Shown piece by piece: positions 3,702 to 44,409 of a stretch of DNA of 44,409 nucleotides (position 1 is its first letter; every line of letters begins with the position of its first letter). Made by a program: the position numbers and the translations under genes. Origin of the DNA: a virus; IMG/VR virus record IMGVR_UViG_3300033417_000017, positions 1 to 44,409 of that record; one strand, given 5' to 3'. The notes beneath the pieces were generated by a model that was not told where the DNA came from, made no database searches, and saw only the letters and a program-made list of their open reading frames with translations.

Positions 3702-3705
3702 CGTG

Positions 3706-4307: not shown

Positions 4308-4333
4308 CTCAAGTCTCCTCCTGTAGCGGGCCG

Positions 4334-4567: not shown

Positions 4568-4579
4568 TTCTTGTCTCCT

Positions 4580-4850: not shown

Positions 4851-4889
4851 CTCAGTTACTCCTGTAGTCGGCAATGATCTGCCATCTTC

Positions 4890-4926: not shown

Positions 4927-4938
4927 TAAAGGGGCGGG

Positions 4939-5091: not shown

Positions 5092-5133
5092 AGGCGTATT
5101 GTGTCTCCTTCTTGACAGAATTGGCCTGTCATC

Positions 5134-5176
5134 GTAACCATGGGCTGCCCATTATTTCAGGGTAGCCCATGGTTAC
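5134..5176 (-). promoter_or_regulatory. Perfect 13-bp hairpin (family member 3)
   Basis: GTAACCATGGGCT (5134-5146) pairs with AGCCCATGGTTAC (5164-5176). It is downstream of the stop of gene 5202..5819 and is followed on the minus strand by GATGACAG (5126-5133). Confidence 0.7.
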
Positions 5177-5201
5177 AGGACGGGCCAGAGGTAGAAGCAC
5201 A

Positions 5202-5819: not shown

Positions 5820-5874
5820 GTTAGTCACTCCATTAACGCAGCAATTGCGCTGCTATGGCTCCTGTCGTACTCTG

Positions 5875-6153
5875 TTATTCGGCCAGTAGGTGGCTGGCGC
5901 GCGCCATAAGCGCATCGTAGTCGTTACGGATGGCAAGCGGCACGGGGCAGCGTTCGTCGCCCGGTTCGCTTATGCCAAGGTGGCTACCGATCGCGTATTG
6001 CAGCGCTTCGTCGGCGGCCGACCAATGCGCTTCGGCCCTTAGGGCTTCGGCGGGGCAGTCGGCGCGCAACGCAGCTTGCAGCCACGCGGCGGTTGCGGGG
6101 CAGTCAGCGCCAGTAAGCGCCGTAGCGAATTCGTTGTAAAGGTTGTTTGTCAC
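5875..6153 (-). CDS. Hypothetical protein (92 aa)
   Basis: GTG start with AGGAG 7 nt upstream; ORF from the track; flanked by 18-bp inverted repeats. Confidence 0.65.
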   Translation of the reverse strand: MTNNLYNEFATALTGADCPATAAWLQAALRADCPAEALRAEAHWSAADEALQYAIGSHLGISEPGDERCPVPLAIRNDYDALMARASHLLAE

Positions 6154-6380
6154 GGTGTAACTCCTGTCCTAGTAAGGCGCGCCAAGCTGGCAGGCCAATG
6201 TAGGACAGGAGCCATGGCAGCGGCGGGCACAAAGCCCGCGCGCCGTAAATGGTAGTGACCCACCATGCGCTGTCGCACATGGGCGCTGGCTATTGCCAGC
6301 ACTTGCGCCAGTTTAACTTGGCGACGCCTTAAGCCCAGCGCTACAGGGGTCCACTGCCCAGCGCCATGCCCGTATTCCAA
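6150..6380 (-). CDS. Doubtful basic ORF (76 aa, TTG start)
   Basis: Its only support is a GTGA stop/start overlap with the next gene and the fact that it reads through the SD-sequestering hairpin. The composition is R-rich and there is no clear SD. Confidence 0.3.
   Translation of the reverse strand: MEYGHGAGQWTPVALGLRRRQVKLAQVLAIASAHVRQRMVGHYHLRRAGFVPAAAMAPVLHWPASLARLTRTGVTP
6161..6211 (-). promoter_or_regulatory. SD-sequestering hairpin upstream of gene 5875..6153
   Basis: CTCCTGTCCTA (6161-6171) and TAGGACAGGAG (6201-6211) are perfect reverse complements with a 29-nt loop. On the minus-strand RNA the 3' arm contains the AGGAG SD of the GTG at 6153. Confidence 0.6.
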
Positions 6381-6613
6381 CCGCTACTGGCACTTAGCCG
6401 TTCCTAGCGGGCAGCGCCTACCTTCTCTAAATAACCGCGCCACCTTGGCGCACTGCCTGTATAGCGCAGAAATCTTTAACAAACAGTTAAGAATTCCAAA
6501 CTTTATTTCGTGTGCCACAATGGGGCGAAAATGCGAAAACGACTCCGCGGCAGGGCAGGTACCACTTGGCGCATTTCGCTTCCCACGGGGCTTAAAATCG
6601 GCCTGCGTCGGCT

Positions 6614-7078
6614 TCAGGTATTTTGGGCTGCCAGCAGCGCGGCCAGTTCTTTGTCGGTTACGTTGCGCGCGGCTATGCTTACCGTGCCGTTAAGAGTCTC
6701 GGCCAGTGTATGCCACCCGCCCCGGCTAAAGTTCACCGCAAGGCTGGCAGCGGTAGGCACGAATTTATTACCATATTCCATAACAGCCTTGGTTAATTCC
6801 ACATGCGCGGCTTTGGCCCCAAGGCAGTACGTTACGCCACCCGGTTCAATTTCAATTGCGTAGTATCTGGCTGGCCTGCCGCCGCGTCCGGTTTCTGCGC
6901 GGCTGCGGTTTGCGGCGCTTACGGCGGCGCGCTGGGCCGCGCCAGCCATTAGTTCCGCGTTAACTTCTTCTGCTAACTGCGTCTCTTTATGGCTACGTAA
7001 CGCAGTTTCTACACACATAAATAGTAACACTTGGCTTGCGGATAACATGTGTATTCTCCTAAGTGTTTGTAAACCCAC
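6614..7078 (-). CDS. First leftward gene; hypothetical protein (start 7078 or 7048)
   Basis: 154-aa track ORF directly flanking the divergent control region. Contains RGGRPARYYAIEIEPGGVTYCLGAKAAHVELTKAVMEYGNKF; no motif recognised. Confidence 0.7.
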   Translation of the reverse strand: MGLQTLRRIHMLSASQVLLFMCVETALRSHKETQLAEEVNAELMAGAAQRAAVSAANRSRAETGRGGRPARYYAIEIEPGGVTYCLGAKAAHVELTKAVMEYGNKFVPTAASLAVNFSRGGWHTLAETLNGTVSIAARNVTDKELAALLAAQNT

Positions 7079-7438
7079 AATTATACAGATGTACAGTTGC
7101 GCGGCCTATAACCCCCCTAACCTAATTTGTAACCAAAGACCATAACCATTTATTAATCCTACTTAAATATACTTACAAACTTTTAATTCCCCCTTAGGGT
7201 AGTATATTAAGTGTTATGTGTACAGTCTTACCTGTTTTGGCCAATGTTTACAGCGCATTAGACGAATTAACAGATGGGCGGCTTTATGCACATATCTGTT
7301 TAATTGTTTATTTACAATGGGTTGCCCGTTGCGTGGCTGCTCCGATGCTGCGTGTGTTGTCAGCGGCTGGCCGGGCTGCTAGGGCTACGGCCTCGGAGCA
7401 CCGGAGCAGCCAAGACTTAAAGAACAGATAAAGACCAC

Positions 7439-7642
7439 GGTTAAGAGACGAAGTTACGAAGTCTTTAACGACCGTGGTTACGAAGTCGCTAAGAGACGTG
7501 GTTGCTACGACGCTACGATATCTGGTTAAGAGATCATTAATGCTCGTGGTTACGGAGATGCTAAGAGACTTCGTTACTACGACACTAAGATACTTGGTAA
7601 AGATTTCGCTAAGGAGCTTCGTTGGTGAGTGTGGTTAATTTC
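7439..7642. repeat. Array of ~8 degenerate 24-nt units, each two 12-mers (TGGTTACGAAGT + CGCTAAGAGACG type)
   Basis: Phasing the sequence from 7439 in 12-nt steps gives ggTTAAGAGAcg, aaGTTACGAAgt, ctTTAACGACcg, tgGTTACGAAgt, cgCTAAGAGAcg, tgGTTGCTACga, cgCTACGATAtc, tgGTTAAGAGat, caTTAATGCTcg, tgGTTACGGAga, tgCTAAGAGAct, tcGTTACTACga, caCTAAGATAct, tgGTAAAGATtt, cgCTAAGGAGct, tcGTTGGTGAgt. Confidence 0.85.
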
Positions 7643-7743
7643 TTTGCGACTTCTGTTAACCACGTTGCTTGGGGGCGGGGGTAGGTTGCGGCTCGGGGGT
7701 GTGTGCGCCTTGATGAAGCTACCCCGGAGCAACGGAGCGACTG

Positions 7744-7800
7744 AGTAATCATAAAGACCAAGAATTCAAGAAGCTAAGTAATACTAAAGACCAAGAATTC
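7744..7800. repeat. Two 24-nt direct repeats, 33-nt period (AGTAATCATAAAGACCAAGAATTC / AGTAATACTAAAGACCAAGAATTC)
   Basis: 7744-7767 and 7777-7800, 22/24 identical, each ending in GAATTC. A related ATAAAGACCA occurs at 7428-7437. Confidence 0.9.
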
Positions 7801-7836
7801 GAGGAACCATTCAAACTGAAAGACAAGGACAGTCAT

Positions 7837-7947
7837 ATGTTCAAGAATTTCATACGCAGGTTCGAGAATGAAGTAGTGATCCACCCAAGCCTAAGCGTCG
7901 CAGTCGGCTTTGTAGTCGGCGCTATTATAGGAGCTATGGTCTTCTAA
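7837..7947 (+). CDS. Small membrane protein (36 aa)
   Basis: MFKNFIRRFENEVVIHPSLSVAVGFVVGAIIGAMVF with a C-terminal TM helix; TAATG stop/start overlap with the next gene; below the track cut-off. Confidence 0.4.
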   Translation: MFKNFIRRFENEVVIHPSLSVAVGFVVGAIIGAMVF

Positions 7948-8492
7948 TGCCCCGCCAAAGGAGAAAATTCCTCACGAAGGAGCGGGAGCAGGCCCATGAG
8001 CGCGCTCTGGCCAAGCGCCGCGCCGCGCACCGCGATGCAGCCACTCTGCGCATGGCCAAAAAGGCCGCCGAACAGGGGGCGGAGGGCGAAGCGGACTTTG
8101 AAATGCTGGTAGAAGCCGAGAAGCAGCGCATCGAAACAAAGAAGCAGACAGACAAGCGCAAAGGCGGACAGGCCAGCCCCAAAGTAATCGTCGCAGCGAG
8201 AGACAGTCTTTCGCGCGCGTTCGACCTTATGGGCGGCGTGGCCGCGCTGGTCGTGTGGGGACGCGCGAACCCCACTGAGTTCTATCGTATCTGGGCGAGG
8301 TTGATCCCAAGAGAGGCGGCGGACTCTTCAGCGGCCCTGCCGTTGGAAACCTTGCTGGAGAAGCTCGCCACCCGCGAAGCGATGTCCGTTGGACAGGCCG
8401 CCATGGCGATTGGCCAAGAGCTGATCGATGAAGGGCGACGTAACGCAGAGATCGAAGACATTGCGTCTTTGCGCCCAGAGAAGATTAACTGA
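7947..8492 (+). CDS. Basic hypothetical protein (possible terminase small subunit / DNA-binding)
   Basis: 181 aa with a K/R/E-rich N-terminus (MPRQRRKFLTKEREQAHERALAKRRAAHR...). It is the first sizeable gene of the packaging/structural arm. Function is assigned by position only. Confidence 0.6.
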   Translation: MPRQRRKFLTKEREQAHERALAKRRAAHRDAATLRMAKKAAEQGAEGEADFEMLVEAEKQRIETKKQTDKRKGGQASPKVIVAARDSLSRAFDLMGGVAALVVWGRANPTEFYRIWARLIPREAADSSAALPLETLLEKLATREAMSVGQAAMAIGQELIDEGRRNAEIEDIASLRPEKIN

Positions 8493-8552
8493 TGCCACAG
8501 AATTTCGATCCTGTGAGCCTTTTCAAAATGCTGCGCGGCGCAGCAAAATGCC

Positions 8553-8825
8553 ATGCCCGCTGGAGAATTGGCGCGGCTGAACGGCAACTGGCGCGGCACG
8601 GTCTCGGTCAAGGGCGATGAGTGCCGGTTCAAGTTTGACGATGGCTCGGTGCTGACGGAAACGGACGGCAAATACCTGGCGCAGGCGGCGAACGACCTTG
8701 CCGGGATGACGCTTGAGGGTGTCGCTACAATCGACCCCAGCTGCAACGGGACGATCTACAAATGGCGGACGCAGGGCCACACGGTCGATCCGTTTGAAGA
8801 TACGATGGAATTGGTTCCAGCATAA
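8553..8825 (+). CDS. Hypothetical protein (90 aa)
   Basis: Track ORF with coherent sequence. Confidence 0.6.
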   Translation: MPAGELARLNGNWRGTVSVKGDECRFKFDDGSVLTETDGKYLAQAANDLAGMTLEGVATIDPSCNGTIYKWRTQGHTVDPFEDTMELVPA

Positions 8826-8837
8826 GGAGAAACGACG

Positions 8838-8984
8838 ATGGATAAAGAGTATGAATTAAAGCGATGCGCTGATGCGCTTGAGAGAATTGCGGAGTTGCTT
8901 GAGTCTGTTCTTAAGTCATACGACATCGAAACCAAGAGCGGTGGCACCGGCGATCCTCCGCCGCCGCCTCCTCCGCATCGCTAA
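8838..8984 (+). CDS. Small hypothetical protein with a poly-Pro C-terminus (48 aa)
   Basis: AAGGAG 8 nt upstream; MDKEYELKRCADALERIAELLESVLKSYDIETKSGGTGDPPPPPPPHR; TAATG overlap with the next gene. Confidence 0.5.
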   Translation: MDKEYELKRCADALERIAELLESVLKSYDIETKSGGTGDPPPPPPPHR

Positions 8985-9487
8985 TGTCTTTTACAGACTG
9001 GCCTTTCTACCTCGCGTCCATGTTGCTGGTCTTTGGGCTGGCAGCATGGACCGCGTGGAAGTATGAAGAAGAACGCGGAACGCTAGTATGGGTTATCTTC
9101 GCCATTGGGTTTAATTGGTGCGCGGGGCGCGCCTTTGTCTTAATGACTGAAGACTCGGCACCTTGGCAGTTCAACATATTCATCGACAGCATGGCCGCTT
9201 TTGCAATTCTATGGCCCCCGTCTTCCCGCTGGCAAAGTATAATTGCATGTTTCTACTTCGCACAATTAGCTTTTCACGCGGTTTATGGTAGCGAAAAGCT
9301 ATTAAATCTTTCAATAGGAGAAGTGCTTTACTATAAGACAATAACATGGATCGCGCTGGCACAACTAATCGCAGTAGGAGTGTGGTGCGGTGGAAGATGG
9401 CTTCGAAATCATGTGCATCACTTTCGCTATTTTGGCTATGCGCTGGATCGCGTTACGGGTGCTGCAAATATGGATGAGCAGACGTGA
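8984..9487 (+). CDS. Polytopic membrane protein (~5 TM)
   Basis: 167 aa with hydrophobic segments YLASMLLVFGLAAWTAW, LVWVIFAIGFNWCAGRAFVL, IFIDSMAAFAILW, IIACFYFAQLAFHAVY and ITWIALAQLIAVGVWCGG. Confidence 0.75.
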   Translation: MSFTDWPFYLASMLLVFGLAAWTAWKYEEERGTLVWVIFAIGFNWCAGRAFVLMTEDSAPWQFNIFIDSMAAFAILWPPSSRWQSIIACFYFAQLAFHAVYGSEKLLNLSIGEVLYYKTITWIALAQLIAVGVWCGGRWLRNHVHHFRYFGYALDRVTGAANMDEQT

Positions 9488-9708
9488 CCGCTCCCGTCCA
9501 GATAAAGATTAACTGGCGGATAGTTGGGCCATTTATGGCTCTATTTGGGGTAGGTAGTTCTATTGCCGCTGGTTGGATTAACTTTGAAATGCGCGTGAAT
9601 AGCATAGAAGTTAATTCCTTGAATGAAAAAGAATGGCGGGCCGATATGAAGAAGCAGCTAGATCGCGTAGAAGGTAAACTAGACGCTGGTATATTGGAAG
9701 CGAAATGA
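9484..9708 (+). CDS. Single-TM membrane protein (74 aa; holin/antiholin candidate)
   Basis: GTGA overlap start; TM segment WRIVGPFMALFGVGSSIAAGWINF followed by a charged tail. Confidence 0.6.
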   Translation: MTAPVQIKINWRIVGPFMALFGVGSSIAAGWINFEMRVNSIEVNSLNEKEWRADMKKQLDRVEGKLDAGILEAK

Positions 9709-10073
9709 CTGACGACTACGATCCGCAAGATCCGCTGCCCGAGAGTAACTGGCTCTGGCGACGGGTGTTTATCTACTCCACTATGGTGGTGTTGTTGGTG
9801 GGGCTGGGTTGGATTGTGTGGGGGATGACCGACGCGCTGCTTGAGATCGTCAAGGGTGATGCCGACGCCACTGCTACGGTCAATGCCCTGCGCGACGTGG
9901 CATATTACGCAATAGGCTTTGCCGCGTGGTTGGCGACGATCTACACCATCGCCCCTTCGGGTGAGCAGGTGGCTAAGATGGTACAAGCGGTGAAGCTTAG
10001 CATTGGCGCACCCGCAGACGCTTCGCCAGTTTCTCGCCATAAGTTAAGCGAAGAAGAGATTGAAGACAAATGA
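9705..10073 (+). CDS. Two-TM membrane protein (122 aa; holin candidate)
   Basis: ATGA overlap start; TM segments VFIYSTMVVLLVGLGWIVWGM and VAYYAIGFAAWLATIYTIA; acidic C-terminus. Confidence 0.65.
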   Translation: MTDDYDPQDPLPESNWLWRRVFIYSTMVVLLVGLGWIVWGMTDALLEIVKGDADATATVNALRDVAYYAIGFAAWLATIYTIAPSGEQVAKMVQAVKLSIGAPADASPVSRHKLSEEEIEDK

Positions 10074-17753: not shown

Positions 17754-18530
17754 GTGTCTCTCACGTCTGAAATTATTACCTTCGCTCACCGCGAAACCAA
17801 CTTGGTTGCCAAGGGACAGGCTCCCTCTGCCGAGCATGTGGCTGAGGCGCTGCCGCGTCTTAATTCGCTGGTCTCCGCCGCCTACGGGTACGAAGTTGGC
17901 CGACAGTTCATCGATTGGCCTGTTGGCCAACAGGGTATCTCCGCGGAAGACCAGACGTATTGGAGCGCTAACGAATGGCAGTTCCCGCCCGCCAATGTTC
18001 GCCTCATCGCAGCAAGCGATTCTGCCCAGACTATTTATCTGCACCCGCAACCCAGCGACGGCGCGCGAGTGGCTTTGATAGATCCGGCTGGGCTGCTAGC
18101 CTCCGCGCCCATTACTATTGACGGCAACGGGCGACGGATTGAAGGTGTGGCTTCGGTAGTTCCCACAGTTAATACGATCTGGTTCTACAGAGCCGATCAG
18201 GGAAATTGGGTTGTCCTTTCTGCGCTGACCGCAGTAGATCCAGAAGAGTTCCCGTTTCCTATAGAGTTCGACGATTACTTCGTAATCATGCTGGCGGCGC
18301 GCATTAACCCGCGCTACGGGCGTTCTTTGAGTGAAGCGTCGACCGCCATACTAGGGGCCACACTCGAAAAGCTGCGGGCGCGGTATAGGCAGGCGGCGCT
18401 TGTTCCGGGCGAGCGAGCGCTAGCGGCTCTAACGTCTGGGTTTGGCGACGGATGCTCGCAGAGCGCGAACGGCGATACGGGGCACCTTGGTCAGCGGCGG
18501 CTAGTGCGCCCGCCTCATTACGAGGGGTAG
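17754..18530 (+). CDS. Virion structural protein (adaptor/connector candidate)
   Basis: 258-aa track ORF, tightly packed in the structural module; no motif recognised. Confidence 0.7.
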   Translation: MSLTSEIITFAHRETNLVAKGQAPSAEHVAEALPRLNSLVSAAYGYEVGRQFIDWPVGQQGISAEDQTYWSANEWQFPPANVRLIAASDSAQTIYLHPQPSDGARVALIDPAGLLASAPITIDGNGRRIEGVASVVPTVNTIWFYRADQGNWVVLSALTAVDPEEFPFPIEFDDYFVIMLAARINPRYGRSLSEASTAILGATLEKLRARYRQAALVPGERALAALTSGFGDGCSQSANGDTGHLGQRRLVRPPHYEG

Positions 18531-18536
18531 CGGGTT

Positions 18537-19814
18537 GTGAAACTGCCCTACGCACGAGGAAGCTACTCCCGCCAAGTGGCAAAGACTCCGGTTGTGCCGT
18601 TCCACAACAGATATCCCGAAGAAATACCGACGCTCACCGATGGTCCGGTTTCCGCCATCGCGCGTCCTGCGCTGAAGTACTTTCTTAATGAGGGAGACGG
18701 CCCTGTGCGGAAAGTGTTCTCAGCACCGGGCATATTCGACGACGCGGCGTTTACCGTCCATGGTCTAGACCTTATGCGCGTTGGGGCCGCCGACGGTAGT
18801 GTTACGAATGTAGGCACTATCGGAACGTCTATTCTTGGCGACGTCAGCATGGCGGTTGTCGCGCATATAGAGGACACTATTCCCAGTCGTCTCTTCATCG
18901 CTGATGGCGGTGTTCTGTGGATGTACACAGAGAACAGCGGAGCTCTTGGGCATCTACAAGCCACGGGCGCGATTGCGAATGGTTACGTGGTAGAGATCAA
19001 CGGTGTCTATTACCACTGGACTAACGCTAGCGTGGATGCCAGCGCGCCAGCGGGCACTGTGGGCAACCCATGGCGCGTGGCGCTAGGCGCAAGTAACTCT
19101 GAGGCGTTGCGCAACCTGTATTGGGCGATAAATGCTGATGAGGGCGTGGCGGGCACAGACTACAGTACCGCAGCGACTCCGCATCCCAATGTCCGCGCAA
19201 CAGTCCACACTACGGCAGATCTTTATGTCGCCGCTAACGTAGCGGGCACCGCAGGCAACGCTTATACGACTACAGAGACCGGAGCGAACACGGCGTGGGG
19301 AGCGGCTACGTTAGAAGATGGCGGAACTACGCAAATAAGGCAGATAACCCTACCCGGTGACGTTGGCGCTATAAGCGTAGCCAGCATCAACAGCTACGTG
19401 ATCGTAATTCCGGTACAGAGCGAAGATCTATTTACCGTCGGCAAGTTCTACTGGATTGAACCGGGCGATGACTTTATAGATCCTTTGAACTTTGCCACGG
19501 CGGAGCGTAGCAGCGACGTTAATCATCAAGTTCTCGTCTATAGTGATCAGTTCTGGCTGTTCGGTAAGGAGACTACCGAAGCGTGGATTATGACTACTGA
19601 TCCAGACGCCCCCGTTCAGCGTTACCAAGGTGTTCTTTACGACCGAGGGTCGTGGGAAGGAACTGCCGTAAAGCTGCGCGACTCTATGATCGTAGTGGAC
19701 GAAGAAGGGGTAGTGTTTCAGCTAAGGGGCGGGCCGAGAGAAATTTCGCGCCCAGATATTTCAGAGAGAATTCGCAGAGCGATGCAGGCCGAGGGCCTGT
19801 CTCCTCTAGTTTAG
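18537..19814 (+). CDS. Virion/tail protein, beta-rich, with an inserted A/G/T-rich module
   Basis: 425 aa. The flanks (LFIADGGVLWMY ... FWLFGKETTEAWIMT...VQRYQGVLYDRGS) look like a beta-propeller-type tail or stabilisation protein. Residues ~141-263 match the 16344 module. Confidence 0.75.
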   Translation: MKLPYARGSYSRQVAKTPVVPFHNRYPEEIPTLTDGPVSAIARPALKYFLNEGDGPVRKVFSAPGIFDDAAFTVHGLDLMRVGAADGSVTNVGTIGTSILGDVSMAVVAHIEDTIPSRLFIADGGVLWMYTENSGALGHLQATGAIANGYVVEINGVYYHWTNASVDASAPAGTVGNPWRVALGASNSEALRNLYWAINADEGVAGTDYSTAATPHPNVRATVHTTADLYVAANVAGTAGNAYTTTETGANTAWGAATLEDGGTTQIRQITLPGDVGAISVASINSYVIVIPVQSEDLFTVGKFYWIEPGDDFIDPLNFATAERSSDVNHQVLVYSDQFWLFGKETTEAWIMTTDPDAPVQRYQGVLYDRGSWEGTAVKLRDSMIVVDEEGVVFQLRGGPREISRPDISERIRRAMQAEGLSPLV

Positions 19815-19824
19815 GAGAAGCAGC

Positions 19825-20925
19825 GTGAGCCTTCTGTGGTTTGATAACTTTCAGTACTACGGCACAGACGAAGCCAATATGCTTCTTGACAGTGTGTGGA
19901 CAAATATCGCCGTATCTGGTGCGAATGGCGGTCTGCAGACTGATCCTGATGGAGTCTCTGGAACAAAGGTACTGCAACTCTCTGGACAGGGTGGCGGCAG
20001 CGGGTCCAGCCGCTTTACGATACCCACGGCTGGCGATGTTCATAATCTGGGGTTCCGTCTCTGGTTGCCTTCCATGCCCGCCAACGACGGACAGAGCTTT
20101 GGTGTGGCGCTCAAGGACGTGAGCAATAATAACAAGTATCTTCTGCGGACGAACCCAAGCGGTTATCTAATTTTAGAGCGCACCGACGGGTGCGGAACTG
20201 ACATAAGCCAAACCGACGAAACCAACGGAGACGTTGTGCAAGTGGGCATAACTGCGTCTCCTGTTCTAGGGTCTGGTCAGTGGCTTCACATCGAATGGTT
20301 AATGAATCGGACTTCCGGGGATTACGAAATCCGCGTAGAAGGAGTAAACGTCTTATCCGGCACAGATGGTTCAGTGGCGACGGGGAACAGCGCAATCGTA
20401 GAGTGGCTGGCGGGCTACAACGCTTCTGCCGGACAGGGAACGTACCCGTATATAAAGGACGTCTTTATTGCTGACGACGCTGGGTCAGTTAACAATGCCT
20501 TTATCGGCCCGGTCACTATCGTAGCTCTGCAGATGACGTCCGACGTTTCTAGTGGTTGGGATCGTAGTTCCGGCGCTACTTGGTACACGCTTATTGACGA
20601 GCTTACGCCAAACGATAGCGATTACATAGAAGCCGACGATTCTCCGCCCGCTGCGTCTATCTTTGGGTTTGAGAATCTTGATGTAGATGTCGTTTCTGTC
20701 CGCGGGCTACGAATGATATCACGGGCATGGAAGACGGATGGCGGCGATGCGACGCTACAGAATAGTCTCATAAGCGGCGTTAGTGAAGACAACGGCGCTT
20801 CTCATGCGGTCGGCGTTTCTGCGCAGTTAAAGTGGGACGTTAGCGAAATAGATCCAGATACCGCAGGAGTTTGGTCCCCTGCCGCCGTTAATGCGGCAAC
20901 CTTAAAGATAGATAGGACCGCGTAG
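19825..20925 (+). CDS. Virion/tail structural protein
   Basis: 366-aa track ORF; beta-rich composition. Confidence 0.75.
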   Translation: MSLLWFDNFQYYGTDEANMLLDSVWTNIAVSGANGGLQTDPDGVSGTKVLQLSGQGGGSGSSRFTIPTAGDVHNLGFRLWLPSMPANDGQSFGVALKDVSNNNKYLLRTNPSGYLILERTDGCGTDISQTDETNGDVVQVGITASPVLGSGQWLHIEWLMNRTSGDYEIRVEGVNVLSGTDGSVATGNSAIVEWLAGYNASAGQGTYPYIKDVFIADDAGSVNNAFIGPVTIVALQMTSDVSSGWDRSSGATWYTLIDELTPNDSDYIEADDSPPAASIFGFENLDVDVVSVRGLRMISRAWKTDGGDATLQNSLISGVSEDNGASHAVGVSAQLKWDVSEIDPDTAGVWSPAAVNAATLKIDRTA

Positions 20926-20926
20926 C

Positions 20927-21712
20927 ATGGTCGCTTCTGTCGGAGTAAGAGTTTCTCAGGCCATTGTCTTGGCGGCAGTGGCGTTTCCTGCCGCTGGGCT
21001 GCGCGCGGGGCAAGCCGTCGTACTTGCGGCGGAGGACTCTAACGGCGGCGCTGTTCGAGCTTCGCAGGCGGTCGTGCTGGCTGCGGTGCTTGGCCGCACG
21101 GCTAATCCCAAGGTCCGCGCTTGGGGCTACGCGCAAGACGGGCATGAATTCTACGTTCTGCGTCTTGGCAACATTGAAACGCTGGTCTGCGATATAACGA
21201 CAGGGGAATGGTTTACGGTCGGTAGCGGGGGTGGCCCTATCTGGCGCGCACTCACCGGCACAAACTGGACCGGCACGGGCGCGTTGCCCGGTGCTTACGG
21301 CTCTAACGTTCTCGTCGGGGACGACACCACTGGAACTCTCTATTTTCTTAATCCAGATGGAGACTTTGATGACCACCCGATAGATGCGGGCGACGACTCG
21401 CGTCCGTTTACGCGCCAGCTAACGGCGCAGCATCTTGTCGACGCCGGGTACGACTCTGTGCCGTGTTATGGCGTCCAAGCGTTCGGCAGCGCGGGAGACA
21501 ACGCAGAAGGCGATGTCGAACTAGAGTATTCCGACGATCGTGGGAGGTCGTGGATCAGCGCCGGGGTGATCACCGTGGCCGAGGGGGATTACAGCGCGCG
21601 GCTGCACTGGCAGAGTCTTGGGCTGATGGACGCCCCCGGTCGTCTGTTTAGATTTACCGATGACGGCGCTATAAAGCGCTTTGATGATTTTGAAATAGAG
21701 GTTGGAGAGTGA
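20927..21712 (+). CDS. Virion/tail protein with an N-terminal triple repeat
   Basis: VRVSQAIVLAAV / LRAGQAVVLAAE / VRASQAVVLAAV occur within the first 55 aa. Confidence 0.75.
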   Translation: MVASVGVRVSQAIVLAAVAFPAAGLRAGQAVVLAAEDSNGGAVRASQAVVLAAVLGRTANPKVRAWGYAQDGHEFYVLRLGNIETLVCDITTGEWFTVGSGGGPIWRALTGTNWTGTGALPGAYGSNVLVGDDTTGTLYFLNPDGDFDDHPIDAGDDSRPFTRQLTAQHLVDAGYDSVPCYGVQAFGSAGDNAEGDVELEYSDDRGRSWISAGVITVAEGDYSARLHWQSLGLMDAPGRLFRFTDDGAIKRFDDFEIEVGE

Positions 21713-22494
21713 CTACCAGATTTCCATACCAGCACATTGACTGGAACACTCCGCTAGTCGACGCGGATGGTAAGGTGACGCCCTACTTCCAACGGCAGTT
21801 GTTCGGGCAGTTAGAAAATGCGCAGGAGATCGACGGAAGTGGAATAGTAGGCGGCAACGGCATTGATGCGACGGGCACGCTCGGCGGCGGCATTACGATA
21901 AGTGCCGATGAACAAGAAATTTTGGACGCTATTTCCGATGTCCACGGAACTGTGCTGTTTCGCGGCGCGACAGATTGGGAAGGTCTGCCTCCGGGGACGA
22001 ACGGACAGTTTTTCAGGACGCAAGGCGCGGGGGCGGACCCTGTTTGGGCGGGGGCGGGCTATAATTTCTCTGGGTGCCGACTCACGAAGACGACCAGCCT
22101 GACAGGCCTCGGTTTTACTGGCGGGGGCGCGGCGGTTACTTTCGACAACGAAGAATATGACACGGACAGTTTTCACAGCGGGAGCAATGCCTATCTGTCG
22201 GCTCCTGCCGATGGTTATTATGACGTTTCGGCTGCGGCTGTTCTACAGAGCATGACGAGCGCGACATGGGTTAGTGCTTTGATCTCGCAAACGAATAGCA
22301 GCGACGTGTTTATCCGTAATATTCGCGGCTCGGCTGTCGAACTCACCGCGACTTTCAATTTTCAAGTCAACGCGGTGGGTCTGGCTGTTCCAGCGTCCGC
22401 GGGTGACCGCTTCCGGTTTCTTGTTCGCTCCGAGAGCGACACCTCAATTGACTTCGGTGAAAATCCGTCATTCTCTGTTCATCGCGTAGGTTAG
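21709..22494 (+). CDS. Tail fibre / receptor-binding protein candidate
   Basis: The motif HGTVLFRGATDWEGLPPGTNGQFFRTQGAGADPVWA is one I recognise as common in phage tail fibres. The C-terminal beta-rich domain reads GYYDVSAAAVLQS... Confidence 0.65.
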   Translation: MTTRFPYQHIDWNTPLVDADGKVTPYFQRQLFGQLENAQEIDGSGIVGGNGIDATGTLGGGITISADEQEILDAISDVHGTVLFRGATDWEGLPPGTNGQFFRTQGAGADPVWAGAGYNFSGCRLTKTTSLTGLGFTGGGAAVTFDNEEYDTDSFHSGSNAYLSAPADGYYDVSAAAVLQSMTSATWVSALISQTNSSDVFIRNIRGSAVELTATFNFQVNAVGLAVPASAGDRFRFLVRSESDTSIDFGENPSFSVHRVG

Positions 22495-28403: not shown

Positions 28404-28614
28404 GTGGAAAACAGGTGTGGCGGGCGCGCCCCTGCCCAGCGGGGACACGGTTGGCGACTGGATTGCGTTTGGCGATGCGCAGACTGGCCAGCTCGACAAG
28501 GCGAACGATCGCTACCGCGCGGGCGTGGGAATCGTAGGCCGATGCGAAGAGCGCGATCGCGAAGCGGTAGAACGCTCAAGGCGTGGGTTCTTCGGGCGGC
28601 TGTTCGGCCGCTAG
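28282..28614 (+). CDS. o-spanin candidate (lipoprotein), overlapped architecture; alternative starts at 28237 and 28270
   Basis: MPKAQTRLFLLPPLMLASAAC: positively charged n-region, hydrophobic core, and Cys after AA (lipobox-like). It starts inside the i-spanin gene in another frame and extends beyond it. Confidence 0.65.
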   Translation: MPKAQTRLFLLPPLMLASAACVSAPSIVSAPSACSTLLPDEWKTGVAGAPLPSGDTVGDWIAFGDAQTGQLDKANDRYRAGVGIVGRCEERDREAVERSRRGFFGRLFGR

Positions 28615-28956
28615 CAGCCGCGAGATACACCCAATAGCTTCGTCATAGTCGCCGATACACGCATAAGCTACGGCGAGGAAATCCACGAATGGCAGCGGAC
28701 GACAGAAACGATGCGTATCAGCGCTGTTAGCCCATTCGGGCTCGGCGTAGACGCTACGCTCCTTCGCCTTCTCAATATAGTGGATGGCCTTGCGTAAGTC
28801 TTCTGCGCCGTTCTTCTGCCGCCAGCGGACGACATACTTGGTAGCGCAAGCTAACAGATAGTGCAGCTTAATATCGCAGACCCAATCCCAGTGCTGGTAT
28901 TCAAGAGCGCCATAGTGATCTCCACCTACTTGCGTCTTGTTTGCTTCACTTTCCAT
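28576..28956 (-). CDS. DUF3310-family protein
   Basis: 126 aa; TQVGGDHYGALEYQHWDW...ACATKYVVRWRQKNGAEDLRKAIHYIEKA matches the GGxHY...KY..R...K.G.EDL.KA pattern I recall for DUF3310 (SaV-like). Confidence 0.75.
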   Translation of the reverse strand: MESEANKTQVGGDHYGALEYQHWDWVCDIKLHYLLACATKYVVRWRQKNGAEDLRKAIHYIEKAKERSVYAEPEWANSADTHRFCRPLPFVDFLAVAYACIGDYDEAIGCISRLLAAEQPPEEPTP

Positions 28957-29551
28957 GCGCGTTTCTCCAAAGATCTGTAATGTAGCGGTAGAACCAAACG
29001 TCTATTTTTTGCGCCGGGTCGTTTACGGCCAAGTGTAATTCGTCGATAGGCGCCCACGGTTCTCCATTATCAGTGCCGTATAGTAGCGCCGATAAATATT
29101 TTCTAAATTCATCGGCGCAGTAAACCAGACGCGGATGCGCGTTGCCCATGCGGCGTTCATCGACGCAGAAGCGGAATCCGTCAGCGGCGTCGGCGAATTT
29201 TAGAACCCACGTTTCGTGATCCTCCAGATCTTGCTCTAAGTCTATGCCGTGTTCCCGGGCAGTGTCTTCTTCGTGGCCGCCGAATACTTCGCGGAAGGTC
29301 GCGTGGTCGCCGTAGTCTGGCAACGCGCGCTTCGTCGGCGCGGGCATGTCGCCCACTATATGCTCAGCCATGTCGTGCTTCAAGGCGGCGCGGAGCAGCT
29401 TGGCGCTGGCCAGCGGGCGCAGCCGCATGATGATGCACGCCACGTTATAGCTATGATGACCCACGCGGTCAGTCAGCAGCGTTGGAATGCCGTGGAACCT
29501 GATAGTTCCGCCGCCGTGCCACATGAACTCCAGGTCTCTAAAGTCGCTCAT
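28946..29551 (-). CDS. HD-domain phosphohydrolase, YfbR-like 5'-deoxynucleotidase type
   Basis: ATG 29551 in an ATGA overlap with the upstream stop, with GGAGGA upstream. HSYNVACIIMRL...ALKHDMAEHIVGDMPAPTKR gives the H...HD...D signature. Confidence 0.8.
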   Translation of the reverse strand: MSDFRDLEFMWHGGGTIRFHGIPTLLTDRVGHHSYNVACIIMRLRPLASAKLLRAALKHDMAEHIVGDMPAPTKRALPDYGDHATFREVFGGHEEDTAREHGIDLEQDLEDHETWVLKFADAADGFRFCVDERRMGNAHPRLVYCADEFRKYLSALLYGTDNGEPWAPIDELHLAVNDPAQKIDVWFYRYITDLWRNAHGK

Positions 29552-30678
29552 CGCTCCGTTCCTCCGGGTGTGCTTAGCTCCGCCGCGCGGTGCATCCATT
29601 CAGCAGACGCCGCCCGCCAGTCACAGTTCATATCGCCGATCTTGTAGCACCTGTCTATGGCTGTCTCGTAGTCGTAAACCTTACGAGAATCCCATGCGCG
29701 GGCTATGGGGAAAGCCACATCGGCCAAGAAAGAGTGGTTCAGCGCTGTGGTTGGGCGTTCTCTTGCCCCGCCCCGCTTCCACGGTGTTTTGATTGGGTTA
29801 AGCACAGGGTCAAAGAAATCCATGAACCTTGGCAGTTCTTCTTCAAACAGGTCCATGGTGTTGTAATGAAACATGGGGGTCGCGTTGAGCAGCCCCTGCG
29901 TCACGCCGCGCGTGTAGCGGTCGCTCACCATGGCGTCGTGCGCTCTAGCACCGAGATCTTTAACAATGTCAGTGTAGATATGGTAGTCATTACTGATTTG
30001 CGTCATCGTGCCTACGCGGACGTTGAGCCGCGCCGCCATGTACTCCAGCAGAACACTGAAGTTGACCGCGTTGGCTCCATGCGCGCCCCACCACAGATCA
30101 TTGGAGCGACAACAGACAGTCATGTGCAGTGCGTCACCAATTATCCTAAAGTAGACGTGCGTATTGCAGGGGACGTCTTTGCTACTGCCTGCGCTCAGCA
30201 GGTCGCCGTTCATAACGAACTCTCGGTCGCTGGTTTGGTGGATACCCCATGCGTCCCACATGGTAAGCACGGCGCGACGGCTCGAAGGATCTCTGGCCAG
30301 AGCTTCGACTATTTCATCAAGCTGGTCATACCCGAAGTTCTTCCGCCACCTATACCCGTAGGCTCCCGGCTGCGTTTTGCCGCCGTCGTCAGAGTACTCG
30401 AGCATTCGCTTGTTGTACTGGCCCAGCCATGCCAAGTCATTGCGCCCAGCGAGCATCCATAGGGCTTCCATAAGGTGGAAGAAGGGGTTGGCGTTACGCA
30501 GCGGGCTGAACAGCACCCGTTCCAGCGGCTTGGCGGTTACAGTGGCAACGGGCACGCCACACGTAATAACGTGGCCATTGCGCGACTCTGTGCCGTAGGT
30601 CGGCGCATCTGGGTCGCACATAAGCTTAAGACCAAGGCTCAGCGCTTGGTTGACGTTGCGTGGGTTGAGCGTTATCAT
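29548..30678 (-). CDS. Thymidylate synthase (ThyA)-fold family enzyme; dUMP/dCMP methylase or hydroxymethylase
   Basis: 376 aa; RNANPFFHLMEALWMLAGRNDL, YGYRWR, DQLDEIV, DPSSRRAVLTMWD, the catalytic-Cys context VPCNTHVYF, and CRSNDLWWGAHGANAVNF (RSxD...N block). Confidence 0.8.
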   Translation of the reverse strand: MITLNPRNVNQALSLGLKLMCDPDAPTYGTESRNGHVITCGVPVATVTAKPLERVLFSPLRNANPFFHLMEALWMLAGRNDLAWLGQYNKRMLEYSDDGGKTQPGAYGYRWRKNFGYDQLDEIVEALARDPSSRRAVLTMWDAWGIHQTSDREFVMNGDLLSAGSSKDVPCNTHVYFRIIGDALHMTVCCRSNDLWWGAHGANAVNFSVLLEYMAARLNVRVGTMTQISNDYHIYTDIVKDLGARAHDAMVSDRYTRGVTQGLLNATPMFHYNTMDLFEEELPRFMDFFDPVLNPIKTPWKRGGARERPTTALNHSFLADVAFPIARAWDSRKVYDYETAIDRCYKIGDMNCDWRAASAEWMHRAAELSTPGGTER

Positions 30679-31514
30679 AGTATCACTCCTGTCTGTGGGT
30701 ATCTCTGCTTGGGTCTGCCTTCGCCCAGACGAACACGTTCGTACTTATCAAACTCACAGAGACAATTTTGCACGTCCTGCGCGGTGAGCGGCAACATGCT
30801 AAGGCGCTTGTTGACCGCGTCACGTAGAACGCTCAGCCGCTCCCTGAACGCAGCTTCTGACATAAGGGCGCTTATGGGCAGCCCCAGCACACGATTCATT
30901 CCTCTGCGGCTGCCGGGGCCACTTGCGGCGAAGGTGTTGAAGTCTTCCCACTTGTTTGGGTCGGCGTACTTCCAATCGGCTATAACTTGCGCCGCCATAA
31001 AGCTGCCCAGCCCATTTTGGTTGGATAGAACAAGGTAAACGTTCGCAAGCTGGCCAACGTCCATATCCCGCGCCAGCTTTTTGCGATTATCCCACAGGGG
31101 CTGAAGAACGTGGTCGATCACATAGTCTACTTTATTCATCGCGCGCCCGTTCGTACTAACGATGTACGCAGCATTGAAGTTCTTTAGTTTCTCAGCCGTT
31201 CGTTCATGCAAGTGCTCACGAATAGATTCCGGTTTGAACGGAAGAACAAGTGGCTTTATACGAGACAACGCGCCTTCGTTGTTGAACAGCCGCGCCATAA
31301 CAAGCGCAAACCACAGATACTTATGGTCGCGCCAGCGATCTAGATAGTTCTCAAAAATCCACTTAGTCACGCGGTCATCGTTGCGACGGACGTTGCAGAA
31401 GCGATACTGGCTGATTATAGGGTCAGGTCGGACTATCTTACCGCCGCGCTCCTTGGCTACGCGGTGGCGCTCGCGGGCTTTGATAAAGTTGACTAGATCA
31501 GCTACACGCATCAC
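30675..31514 (-). CDS. aGPT-Pplase-like protein (alpha-glutamyl/putrescinyl thymine pyrophosphorylase family candidate)
   Basis: 279 aa. The N-terminal block RPDPIISQYRFCNVRRNDDRVTKWIFENY resembles, from memory, the conserved block of the aGPT-Pplase family. All-helical composition; adjacent to the ThyA-like gene. Not verified by alignment. Confidence 0.5.
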   Translation of the reverse strand: MMRVADLVNFIKARERHRVAKERGGKIVRPDPIISQYRFCNVRRNDDRVTKWIFENYLDRWRDHKYLWFALVMARLFNNEGALSRIKPLVLPFKPESIREHLHERTAEKLKNFNAAYIVSTNGRAMNKVDYVIDHVLQPLWDNRKKLARDMDVGQLANVYLVLSNQNGLGSFMAAQVIADWKYADPNKWEDFNTFAASGPGSRRGMNRVLGLPISALMSEAAFRERLSVLRDAVNKRLSMLPLTAQDVQNCLCEFDKYERVRLGEGRPKQRYPQTGVIL

Positions 31515-32274
31515 AGCCCTCCTTGTACGCCTTCTTCCAAGAAATTACAACTTCAAAGCGTTGGCCCCATTCCCCGTTGCCTGACTTGTAGTCAGTTTCT
31601 CGCACACGGACAAACTCAGAGTGGCGCTCTTTCAATCGCATGACGCTGTTATTGTGGACCTCCAGCGTGCGATACGTATTCGCACCGCCGGGGGAGCCGT
31701 GCCCGCCGTGCTGATTGACCGCGTAGCCGCCCATGACGATATTTGGGAACCCCTTGCGCAGAAGTTGGAGCGTGATATCGAAGTCGTCTTGCACTAGCCC
31801 GGCGCAGTACTTCACGCCAGCAGCACGGAACTTCTCCACATTGAAGCCGAATACGTGCCACGGACGAGAGCAGAACATATCCCCGGTTACGCGGTTACCG
31901 CCCTGCCGCGCAATCGTAGACGCGTGGGCGTACTTACCAAGATGCTTCTCCAGCGTGTTGAACATGCGGCGCACGTCGGCGGGCTTGGCCTGCCTGAACT
32001 TCGTAGTATCGTCGGTGCGGCGCACGTGGAAGCTAAGGTCGTCATCCACCATGACCGCCGCGGCCTCGCTGGCGTGATCCATGATCCACTGGCGCGCACG
32101 GGCTATGCCAATGCCTTGCGGATGCTCGACGACCTCGACAGCGGGCAGGGCGGCGCGGTACGCCTTGGCTTCACCCTTGGGTACGACCATTATGGGCGTA
32201 AGCCCAGCGCCTGCTAGGTCTAGGGCGGTACGCACGTCGTGGCTGCGTTGCATGGAAGGTATGAATATCTGCAT
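31498..32274 (-). CDS. GT-A fold glycosyltransferase-like protein
   Basis: 258 aa. MQIFIPSMQRSHDV (beta1 plus Ser/Arg as in GT-A N-termini), AAVMVDDDLSF (DxD) and VQDDFDITLQLL. CDS confidence is high; function confidence is moderate. Confidence 0.55.
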   Translation of the reverse strand: MQIFIPSMQRSHDVRTALDLAGAGLTPIMVVPKGEAKAYRAALPAVEVVEHPQGIGIARARQWIMDHASEAAAVMVDDDLSFHVRRTDDTTKFRQAKPADVRRMFNTLEKHLGKYAHASTIARQGGNRVTGDMFCSRPWHVFGFNVEKFRAAGVKYCAGLVQDDFDITLQLLRKGFPNIVMGGYAVNQHGGHGSPGGANTYRTLEVHNNSVMRLKERHSEFVRVRETDYKSGNGEWGQRFEVVISWKKAYKEGCDACS

Positions 32275-32361: not shown

Positions 32362-32970
32362 TTAGAAGGCGATGTACCCCTTCTTCTCAGCCCATGCAAA
32401 GTCGACGCGGCGATCACCGTAGGTCTTGTCAGCGGCGAGCGCGGCCTTCGCAGCGTAGGTGGACTTGTGCGCCATGATGATATCCACCATTGCAGCGGTC
32501 CAAGAACCTTCGCGGGCCTTGATGTCGGCGCGCTTGACGAGATGCTTGTAGGTTCGGTCGGCCTGCGGGGCCTTTGCAACCTTCGCCGCCTTGGGAGCGG
32601 CGGGCTTCGCCGCCTTGGGAGCGGCCTTCCTTGTGAGCTTTTCGGCCATGGTATTCAATTCTCCTTTCGTAAATGGGGACACTGCCCCGACTAGCTGCAC
32701 CGCTTCTGGGGAGGCCCCATGGTCCAACATGTCTTGCTTTAACTCCAGAAGAAGCGACTGTAAAGTTTCTTCTTCATGTTGCTGTTTACCATAAAGCGGC
32801 AGTTGCTGCTCGTGTATTACGCGATCGAACACGCCCAGCCCGCTCGACACGCTCGGCATCCGGTACACCGCCCTGGCCCCGCAGAATGTAGGGGCCATGA
32901 CAAAGAGCCTGCCAAACCTGCCGCCGAGCATACTTGCCGGGTCGGTGACGACATAAGGATACTTAGCCAC
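32362..32970 (-). CDS. AK-rich (H1/AlgP-like) protein, paralog of 5202..5819; possible internal start at 32649
   Basis: 202 aa. KAAPKAAKPAAPKAAKVAKAP linker, then ADRTYKHLVKRADIKAREGSWTAAMVDIIMAHKSTYAAKAALAADKTYGDRRVDFAWAEKKGYIAF. AAAGGAGA lies ~10 nt upstream of the in-frame ATG at 32649. Confidence 0.8.
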   Translation of the reverse strand: MAKYPYVVTDPASMLGGRFGRLFVMAPTFCGARAVYRMPSVSSGLGVFDRVIHEQQLPLYGKQQHEEETLQSLLLELKQDMLDHGASPEAVQLVGAVSPFTKGELNTMAEKLTRKAAPKAAKPAAPKAAKVAKAPQADRTYKHLVKRADIKAREGSWTAAMVDIIMAHKSTYAAKAALAADKTYGDRRVDFAWAEKKGYIAF

Positions 32971-43590: not shown

Positions 43591-44280
43591 CTAACGCAGC
43601 GCTGATGGCAAGCCGTGCCTGCGCAGCGCATCGTAGGGCGCGCCGAGCAGGTCCGGGGCGTAGTGGGTTATACCAGCGGCGCTATGGTCTCTGTGATTAA
43701 TCCCCAGCCCCTCCTGAACACATTCGAACTGAGCGCAGTCGTCGCACCAGAACACGCGGCCCAGCATCCACACGCGCGTTTCTTCATTGAACTGCGCTCC
43801 TATGTAGATCTTGTGCGGCTCTACAGGAGAGCCGCTGAAAACTTCGCGCCACTGAGCAGTTCTCGTCTTCTCATGAACGCGGTAGTAGGATGGCTCCGTT
43901 AGCATTCTCTGGCCGCAATCCAAGCAATAGCGACGTCCACCTGTAGTCTCATCTTGGTTGTTGTGCAAGCAATCCATCTCACCCTCCCCTCGCCCAAGGC
44001 CGCGGATGGCAGCGGCGACGATCAAAGCGGCAGTAGCGAAGTTTTCAAAGCCGCCAGCATTTTGCCGCTTGGCCCGGTGGTTGTCCGCCACCTTCGCACA
44101 CCGCTCCCGCTCAGCCGCCAGCCTGCCGGGGAGATCGATGGCGGTGAGGGCGGAGATTGTCGCGCGAAGGGCGGTCGCCAGCTTCTCGGCCTGATAAACT
44201 ACCTCATCAGCTTGATCGTCGTTGTATTTCGTCCAATTGGCAAGCGCTAACTGGCCTTGGGTTACCTCTTCGCGCGCCAC
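43591..44280 (-). CDS. C-terminal part of the junction-spanning Cys-rich ORF (or an independent gene starting at GTG 44280)
   Basis: The protein-like reading VAREEVTQGQLALANWTKYNDDQADEVVYQAEKLA...CLDCGQRM...FWCDDCAQFEC starts directly after the G12 tract. Upstream of the tract, the track ORF (to 44388) reads W/R/T-rich junk. Confidence 0.7.
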   Translation of the reverse strand: MAREEVTQGQLALANWTKYNDDQADEVVYQAEKLATALRATISALTAIDLPGRLAAERERCAKVADNHRAKRQNAGGFENFATAALIVAAAIRGLGRGEGEMDCLHNNQDETTGGRRYCLDCGQRMLTEPSYYRVHEKTRTAQWREVFSGSPVEPHKIYIGAQFNEETRVWMLGRVFWCDDCAQFECVQEGLGINHRDHSAAGITHYAPDLLGAPYDALRRHGLPSALR

Positions 44281-44282
44281 GA

Positions 44283-44409
44283 CCCCCCCCCCCCACCAAA
44301 CCCCCGTCCAGCGGGGGTGGCTTGGCCATCTTGCGGATCGCTTCCATCTGCTCATCGCTGATTTCGTCGTTGTAGTCGGGAAGGTCATGCTCCATAGATT
44401 TGCGGTTCG
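44283..44409. repeat. Second copy of the terminal overlap (= 1..127)
   Basis: Exact identity read directly. Confidence 0.95.

Follow-up and report, generated by a model that had tools for sequence, protein, structure and literature searches.

A five-gene island at the end of the replication arm

The 44,409-nucleotide stretch of viral DNA considered here (IMG/VR record IMGVR_UViG_3300033417_000017, positions 1 to 44,409; its whole length is referred to as the window) carries an island of five genes, at 28576-32274 on the minus strand, that would replace thymine with 5-hydroxymethyluracil (hmU) and glycosylate the replacement base in DNA. The 44.4-kb phage genome, which has an identical contig in ENA and JGI, is laid out as two convergent arms: a rightward structural/lysis arm stops near 28.4 kb, and a leftward replication arm extends from 44.4 to 28.6 kb. 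The latter encodes a DUF3854/DUF5906 primase-helicase, a DnaJ-like protein, a ligase and a family A DNA polymerase, together with a PD-(D/E)XK nuclease, an Rv2179c-like exonuclease and a SNF2 helicase. The island forms the end of this leftward arm, its five co-directional genes facing the structural/lysis arm:

31498..32274, minus strand: candidate TAGT-family GT-A glycosyltransferase (GT), 258 residues; Pfam TAGT PF20691, 81.9 bits (cut-off 27.5), E 8.1e-23; phrog_842, E 1.3e-42
30675..31514, minus strand: HMUDK_hel / aGPT-Pplase clade 1 protein, 279 residues from GTG; PF18723, 115.7 bits (cut-off 25), E 3.3e-33
29548..30678, minus strand: candidate ThyA-fold dUMP hydroxymethylase, 376 residues; PF00303, 69.7 bits (cut-off 24.3), E 2.8e-19; phrog_5131, E 3.8e-92
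28946..29551, minus strand: candidate YfbR-like HD 5'-deoxynucleotidase, 201 residues; PF12917, 33.3 bits (cut-off 25.9), E 5.1e-08; PF13023, 31.1 bits, E 2.6e-07
28576..28956, minus strand: DUF3310 protein, 126 residues, last gene of the leftward arm; PF11753, 26.8 bits (cut-off 24); phrog_5839, E 1.4e-24

Because successive genes overlap by 4-17 nucleotides (nt), they are probably translationally coupled. The start of the HD gene is that of the public gene call (ATG at 29551, making an ATGA overlap with the stop of the ThyA-like gene; the longest open reading frame, ORF, is 28946-29599), and the 279-residue protein has an alternative ATG start at 31511 that would yield 278 residues. The Pfam family scan, which covered 27 ORFs of the window with the structural arm lying outside it, places all five proteins above the gathering scores of their families. 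This arrangement and the five domain calls had been put forward in a preliminary description made from the letters of the DNA; the minus-strand ORFs lie where it placed them, the calls hold in the profile search, and the motifs that it quoted (PCNTHVYF, RSND...GAN, VDDDL, VGGDHY) are present in the translations. The NCBIfam scan is uninformative for four of the five proteins. When the island was compared at the nucleotide level with 50,697 phage records, no relative spanned more than 7% of its length and the matches were confined to fragments of ThyA. A scan for promoters and terminators returned counts at the level expected from shuffled sequence, with no sign of internal signals.

The ThyA-like protein and its predicted specificity

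The ThyA-like protein matches phrog_5131 over its full length (310 bits), and so falls in the same PHROG as gp51 of Pseudomonas phage PaMx11, the DNA of which holds 5-acetylaminomethyl-dU made from 5-hydroxymethyl-dU (5-hmdU) (PMC8989533). E. coli ThyA and T4 gp42 are assigned to phrog_160 instead. Identity is 44-45% to PaMx11 gp51 and cyanophage Pam3 gp52, and ~20% to E. coli ThyA and T4 gp42. The protein stands apart from housekeeping thymidylate synthases, as the preliminary description had supposed: a neighbor-joining tree groups it with the PaMx11 clade, and in NCBIfam it scores 63.9-74.6 bits against the 174-327 cut-offs of the two best thymidylate synthase equivalog models, falling under the cut-off of all seven such models that it matched. 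Its catalytic Cys lies in PCN, where thymidylate synthases have PCH, and it has a long C-terminal extension, as does PaMx11 gp51. Public annotations do name its homologs 'thymidylate synthase', and on that footing the island would serve ordinary nucleotide metabolism, with a true thymidylate synthase, a nucleotidase and no base modification. The scores, the PCN motif and the extension all speak against such an assignment, as does the constant linkage of the ThyA-like gene to genes for DNA-level modifying enzymes, and we consider it very improbable.

When the ThyA-like protein is aligned with E. coli ThyA and T4 gp42, residues C171, R191, S192 and D194 do not vary, and within this frame the Asn of the window protein (GAN, in RSNDLWWGAHGAN) falls on E. 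coli N177 (PFN) and on Asp179 of T4 gp42 (ND). The tentative earlier suggestion that this Asn is a uracil-type residue is thereby placed on a multiple alignment. The same Asn recurs in 44 of the 44 linked loci with a ThyA-like ORF that the motif scan picked up. Uracil specificity is supported, to the extent that sequence can predict it, because Asn occupies the specificity position and because the protein belongs to the clade of PaMx11 gp51 and not to that of T4 gp42.

The opposite proposal, of a T-even-like system in which dCMP is the substrate of the ThyA-like hydroxymethylase and the GT glycosylates 5-hydroxymethylcytosine (5-hmC), can appeal to two observations: the best match by sequence among solved structures is the CMP hydroxymethylase MilA (4e-15), and members of phrog_842, to which the GT belongs, adjoin dCMP hydroxymethylases in T4-like Klebsiella phages. 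MilA, like T4 gp42, has Asp at the specificity position. Neither a dCTPase homolog nor a dCMP deaminase is present in the window, and clade-1 aGPT-Pplases are, to our knowledge, known only from hmU systems. A cytosine-type assignment of the ThyA-like protein was accordingly rejected despite the MilA match, on the strength of the Asn and of the clade placement, and a T-even-like system is given scant credence here.

The glycosyltransferase and the slot that it occupies

The AlphaFold2 (AF2) model of the 258-residue protein (pLDDT 96.2) has a GT-A fold and finds 176 matches among PDB structures at E <= 0.001, the best of them GT-A enzymes, in agreement with the preliminary assignment; a sequence search of solved structures with the same protein returned noise only. 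PF20691 is found in all 91 GT homologs except two truncated ones. R10, D78, D79, D164 and F165 never vary across 63 homologs, and D77 hardly does; the window enzyme has D at position 163 where the consensus has E. The resulting R10...D77-79...D163-F165 pattern, which contains the DxD motif, corresponds to the R...DDD...EDY/F motif that Pyle et al. report in the Trypanosoma cruzi base J glucosyltransferase and in phage GT-A enzymes that hypermodify DNA (bioRxiv 10.1101/2023.12.21.572611).

The strongest argument tying this enzyme to hmU in DNA comes from its position in sibling phages. The closest relatives of the window are contigs of 42-48 kb with HMUDK_hel proteins 55-73% identical, and their gene order is SNF2 helicase, a homolog of a 202-residue protein (p202), a variable slot, HMUDK_hel, ThyA-like, HD, with flanks orthologous to those of the window; in the 42-45 kb siblings compared at the slot, HMUDK_hel is 58-67% identical. 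The edge of the slot and its alternative occupants are:

32362..32970, minus strand: flanking 202-residue protein p202, at the upstream edge of the variable slot; homologs at the same position in the siblings
L052:3876-4514, L053:3878-4501, L054:3876-4508: sibling kinase homologs; contigs of 42-44 kb, one of 30 kb

In the window and in sibling loci L045-47 the slot holds a TAGT glycosyltransferase. In L052, L053 and L054 it holds a P-loop protein of 207-212 residues homologous to PaMx11 gp49, a validated 5-hmdU DNA kinase (E 6e-14 to 4e-19; the L054 protein also matches PF18748 at 29.5 bits). p202 keeps its place whichever enzyme occupies the slot (E 1e-35, 1e-20). The GT and the 5-hmdU DNA kinase are thus alternative occupants of one slot, and both would derivatize the 5-CH2OH group of hmU in DNA. 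The exchange of one enzyme for the other between identical flanks amounts to a natural experiment, in which the clade-1 partner is seen not to be tied to the kinase; since that partner stays constant while the slot enzyme is swapped, its role becomes directly testable.

The tailoring enzymes of the known pathways that were looked for in the window are absent, which bears out the earlier remark that no P-loop kinase or radical S-adenosylmethionine (radical-SAM) partner is to be found. No ORF has the Walker A motif of a 5-hmdU DNA kinase (PF18748), no kinase family is matched among the Pfam-scanned ORFs, and tblastn of the window with PaMx11 gp49 and the three sibling kinases gives no match at E <= 1. 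The same search with PaMx11 gp46, an amino acid:DNA transferase (AADT; PF18724, formerly aGPT-Pplase clade 2), yields noise only (E 0.6), and with PaMx11 gp47, a flavin adenine dinucleotide (FAD) enzyme, and a sibling radical-SAM enzyme nothing above noise at E <= 1. The earlier statement that there is no pyridoxal phosphate (PLP) enzyme agrees with the 27 Pfam-scanned ORFs, no separate PLP search having been made. No TET/JBP (5mYOX) dioxygenase occurs among the same 27 ORFs.

The association of the GT with hmU genes recurs widely. A scan of IMG/VR that used GT peptides alone as queries retrieved 38 loci; within 6 kb of the GT gene, and mostly adjoining it, a ThyA-like gene is found in 37 of them and an HMUDK_hel gene in 36, and none of the 38 has a kinase or AADT gene. 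The 40 ThyA-like ORFs of these GT loci and three sibling loci fall into 16, 8 and 4 clusters at 90, 70 and 50% identity, so that several independent lineages are involved.

These facts bear on the suggestion that hmU merely replaces thymine, as in SPO1, and that the GT acts on a target other than DNA, for example a host surface glycan or protein. GT-A enzymes are very diverse, the top Foldseek matches of the GT model are protein and glycolipid glycosyltransferases, and most GT-A contigs in a metavirome survey have no base-modification neighbor (bioRxiv 10.1101/2023.12.21.572611). Nevertheless, the best family is TAGT, the general GT2 family Glycos_transf_2 reaching only a sub-cut-off 16.3 bits; the GT and clade-1 genes have 14-17 nt in common; the GT sits exactly in the slot of the siblings' DNA kinase; and the 37 ThyA-like neighbors come from independently retrieved loci. 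An enzyme directed at something other than DNA is therefore judged improbable.

The clade-1 aGPT-Pplase protein

The HMUDK_hel gene lies, in the window and in the siblings alike, between the genes for the DNA-level enzyme and the hydroxymethylase. Its 279-residue product, which the preliminary description had called aGPT-Pplase-like, matches PF18723 over profile positions 11-277 of 281, and its model finds 'Pplase1 clade 1' models in BFVD, so that call was sound. HMUDK_hel is the former aGPT-Pplase clade 1, to go by the names of public homologs ('aGPT-Pplase1' in Pam3; 'Pplase1 ... clade 1' in BFVD), and the family numbers 2816 homologs in one search. The AF2 model, built on a 50-sequence alignment, is all-alpha (pLDDT 94.4); in BFVD it matches the proteins of phiRSL1 (TM-score 0.89), PhiW-14 (0.82) and the SP10 kinase fusion (C-terminal part of gp186; 0.74), and weakly matches AADT models (0.48-0.60, E 3e-3 to 2e-2). 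Foldseek against 350,542 PDB chains found no match (best E 0.8) though the AADT structure 8z2m was included, so that membership in the AADT or helix-hairpin-helix (HhH) glycosylase folds is not claimable from solved structures. A sequence search of solved structures returned nothing at E <= 10, and no representative of the HMUDK_hel family appears to have been solved structurally.

An HhH-like GPG...G loop and the pair Cys253-Glu254 are invariant in 33 homologs reaching down to 28% identity. The invariant pair is the starting point of the main alternative to a glycosylated end product, namely that glycosyl-hmU is an intermediate or side product and that the clade-1 protein, like AADT, functions as a Cys-dependent transferase, which would attack C6 of (glycosylated or free) hmU and add another group, or else that two modifications coexist. 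The weak resemblance of the fold to AADT models fits this idea, as do two hhalign runs, with a single sequence and with a 120-sequence profile, both of which put Cys253 on Cys247 of PaMx11 gp46, its catalytic Cys (PMC11472151); the alignments are not significant (probability 0.3-1.6%, E 0.03), and the 279-residue protein does not match PF18724 at E <= 0.1. Phage SP10 has only a kinase/clade-1 fusion (PMC5889632), and the kinase-type siblings likewise have no AADT gene (PF18724) anywhere in the replication arm (the whole arm being represented by L055); both cases suggest that clade 1 can supply the transferase. In these siblings, because no AADT is encoded there, either the clade-1 protein is the only candidate transferase or phosphorylated hmU is the end product. 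What tells against catalysis in the window is the chemistry, since its system provides no phosphate leaving group and a glycoside leaves poorly, and the precedent of M6, the homolog of which (gp55) is dispensable for the in vitro reaction (PMC8989533). Also, a GT gene, a 'pyrimidine hmase' gene of the Asn type and HD and DUF3310 genes are found together at 6998-9688 of the 40-kb circular freshwater phage MW202897.1 (L005), with no HMUDK_hel gene within the 9.7 kb examined; as far as that segment goes, the clade-1 protein is not indispensable to a GT-type island. On these grounds a transferase of the AADT kind is thought rather unlikely.

A more particular form of catalysis would have the clade-1 protein work independently of a kinase, through Cys253, on GT-derivatized hmU, the sugar serving as handle or leaving group for C6-thiolate/exocyclic-methylene chemistry. 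Slim as its chances are, it would, if correct, be a thymine hypermodification of an undescribed chemical type, and would give a function to a widespread family, the role of which has been open since 2013.

The HD and DUF3310 proteins

The HD protein also matches phrog_6047 and phrog_7076, and the metal ligands H...HD...D are seen in its motifs HHSYN and KHDMAEHIVGD. Its gene occupies the position of PaMx11 gp52 and of Pam3 gp53 ('5'-deoxynucleotidase'). Its score lies far under the NCBIfam YfbR equivalog cut-off (18.5 bits against 122), so the protein is not orthologous to YfbR itself. The DUF3310 protein also matches phrog_236, 'nucleotide kinase' (3.1e-12), and T7 gp1.7 carries a DUF3310 domain C-terminally (residues 122-184; 81.5 bits, 4.5e-23). 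In the window protein the domain is N-terminal and is followed by a TPR-like tail, with no overall likeness to gp1.7, including the N-terminal 120 residues of the latter. In a sibling (L052:6663-7736, identical with L055:12163-13236) the two functions are joined in a fusion of 357 residues, YfbR-like HD at 15-97 and DUF3310 at 238-288, which is a Rosetta-stone link between the last two genes of the island. The DUF3310 domain of gp1.7 and this fusion point to a predicted role in the nucleotide pool.

A proposed pathway of thymine replacement and decoration

Together the five genes probably, though far from certainly, specify a two-stage replacement and decoration of thymine, in which 5-hmdU is incorporated and then O-glycosylated in DNA, with the clade-1 protein as DNA-level partner. 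In the first stage, the ThyA-like enzyme would convert dUMP to 5-hydroxymethyl-dUMP, an activity suggested by homology and synteny, while the HD nucleotidase and the DUF3310 protein would shape the nucleotide pool. The former would probably remove competing dTMP or dUMP; the latter could conceivably phosphorylate hmdUMP as T7 gp1.7 does dTMP, a step proposed with low confidence. The family A DNA polymerase of the phage would then incorporate hmdUTP instead of dTTP. In the second stage, which we infer to take place on the polymer, the TAGT-family GT would move a sugar from a host nucleoside diphosphate (NDP) sugar to the 5-CH2OH group of hmU. It would in this way take over the role of the siblings' 5-hmdU DNA kinase, derivatizing the same hydroxyl. 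The clade-1 protein is most likely a DNA-binding partner that would recognize or flip hmU; it might instead carry out a second catalytic step by way of Cys253. The product would be an O-glycosyl-hydroxymethyluracil, a base resembling J that would shield the DNA from host nucleases.

Several observations weigh against this scheme. The sequence of the candidate GT reveals neither its acceptor nor its sugar; the product is a prediction. The members of phrog_842, a family annotated as 'beta-glucosyl-HMC-alpha-glucosyltransferase', are in T-even-like phages annotated as acting on glucosyl-hmC, so that the family is not base-specific. The window has no NDP-sugar genes, and the IMG/VR loci that establish the recurrence of the island are partly redundant. 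As regards the DUF3310 protein, BLASTP against T7 gp1.7 gives E = 1.3, and the link between the two proteins consists of one shared domain of 60 residues. The dispensability of M6 gp55 in vitro counts here too, and should its window homolog prove to be an enzyme, the mature base may be something other than a simple glycoside.

Neighboring and outlying features

The p202 protein has no Pfam, PHROG or NCBIfam match; it contains a Lys/Ala/Pro-rich stretch, KAAPKAAKPAAPKAAKVAKAP, resembling the DNA-binding tails of histone H1 or AlgP type. In the left part of the window, positions 1-10040 hold ten ORFs of 123-301 residues without a Pfam match at E <= 0.01, a property shared by an ORF of 265 residues at 43591-44388; the left 10 kb also includes the GC minimum of the window (0.456 at 7001-8000).

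In the sibling locus L045 (6825-7793; also in L046 and L047) a radical-SAM/SPASM gene, not present in the window, lies between the HMUDK_hel and ThyA-like genes, which suggests that this sub-lineage tailors its glycosylated base further. In the contig collection, 39 blocks have an index entry for the HMUDK_hel protein of the L045 type.

Judged by DNA polymerase, Stenotrophomonas phage AXL3 (L049; 42% identity) is the nearest relative in culture. At its syntenic arm end (18374-22408) are genes for a methyltransferase, a hydrolase, a 'thymidylate kinase', a ThyA homolog with Asp (RSSDVWLGVPYD) and a dCMP deaminase. Because a different island stands there, this arm-end site looks like a hot spot for the swapping of base-modification modules, that of AXL3 being possibly directed at cytosine.

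Comparison with known systems

The nearest described relative is the thymidine hypermodification pathway of PaMx11, M6 and YuA. The PaMx11 genes are ordered gp46 (AADT), gp47 (FAD lyase), gp48 (acetyltransferase), gp49 (5-hmdU DNA kinase), gp50 (HMUDK_hel), gp51 (ThyA-like), gp52 (YfbR-like HD) and gp53 (DUF3310). The gp50-gp53 core is common to the window in the same order, and the logic is shared: hmU is made before replication and decorated on the polymer. The window differs in having no 5-hmdU kinase, AADT, radical-SAM, FAD, acetyltransferase or (by the Pfam scan) PLP gene, and one TAGT glycosyltransferase in place of those tailoring genes. The preliminary description, which spoke of a non-canonical enzyme set, was right in so far as a GT replaces the kinase and AADT; the other four genes constitute a core that is conserved among the described pathways. 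The same core is found in cyanophage Pam3 (annotated there as aGPT-Pplase1, thymidylate synthase, 5'-deoxynucleotidase and 'nucleotide modification'), in Rhizobium phage RHph_TM26 and in phiRSL1. Two enzymes that define the kinase/AADT pathway of M6, ViI, PhiW-14, SP10 and PaMx11 were tested for and are absent, which by the evidence of its sequence places the island outside that pathway.

The glycosylation of 5-hmC in T-even phages likewise combines a ThyA-fold hydroxymethylase acting before replication with a GT that decorates DNA, and the window GT falls in the PHROG of the T2/T6-type enzyme. The two systems differ in the specificity residue (Asp for cytosine, Asn in the window for uracil) and in the ThyA clade, and the window lacks a dCTPase and has a clade-1 aGPT-Pplase. 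The alpha- and beta-glucosyltransferases of T4 are GT-B enzymes, whereas that of the window is GT-A. With Asn in place of Asp and no dCTPase, the island does not belong with the T-even hmC systems.

Glycosylated hydroxymethyluracil, or base J, is regarded as a speciality of kinetoplastids and euglenids. The predicted product of the island is of the same type, an O-glycosylated hmU. In kinetoplastids hmU arises by oxidation of T in DNA, whereas in the window a ThyA homolog would act at the nucleotide level; base J is an epigenetic mark at ~1%, whereas the substitution expected for the window would be genome-wide and protective. As no dioxygenase was found in the 27 scanned ORFs, this is not the kinetoplastid J pathway.

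The TET/5mYOX-associated phage GT-A enzymes (Pfam TAGT; Burke 2021, Pyle 2024) belong to the same Pfam family and have the same fold as the window GT. Those that have been characterized act on 5-hmC made after replication by a methyltransferase and TET; the window has no methyltransferase and, among the 27 scanned ORFs, no dioxygenase, and its precursor enzyme is of the uracil type. The metavirome survey counted GT-A genes next to ThyS homologs in IMG/VR contigs, leaving uracil and cytosine unresolved and the clade-1 partner unmentioned (bioRxiv 10.1101/2023.12.21.572611).

The same association of GT, HMUDK_hel and ThyA-like (Asn) genes is met in two cultured phages, the Ralstonia jumbo phage phiRSL1 (ORF228-238) and Brevibacterium phage LuckyBarnes (gp38-41, in the order ThyA-like, GT, GT, HMUDK_hel), which have three and two GTs where the window has one. 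The phiRSL1 row runs APS-kinase-like, GT, NDP-sugar pyrophosphorylase-like, nucleotidyltransferase, GT, GT, sulfotransferase, HMUDK_hel, ThyA-like; it lies within eleven consecutive genes (L003, 8265-17919), including that for the Gal-3-O-sulfotransferase-like protein and two small ORFs. A larger, possibly sulfated glycan is indicated, that is, a predicted sulfated oligosaccharide on hmU. Within the literature library searched, there was no report on the DNA chemistry of phiRSL1 or LuckyBarnes, and none of glycosylated hmU in a bacterial virus.

If the proposed pathway is correct, base J-like DNA is made by a non-eukaryotic route, nucleotide-level hydroxymethylation followed by glycosylation, in a whole set of phages, to which this 44-kb lineage belongs together with phiRSL1, LuckyBarnes and many marine contigs of IMG/VR. 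This would have a bearing on the arms race between phages and their hosts, as regards resistance to restriction enzymes, CRISPR and type IV systems, and the enzymes could be used as tools to label or sequence 5hmU. The GT-type island, well supported and widespread, is plausible rather than shocking to the specialist: it is the hmU core of the kinase/AADT pathway joined to a glycosyltransferase such as T-even and base J systems employ.

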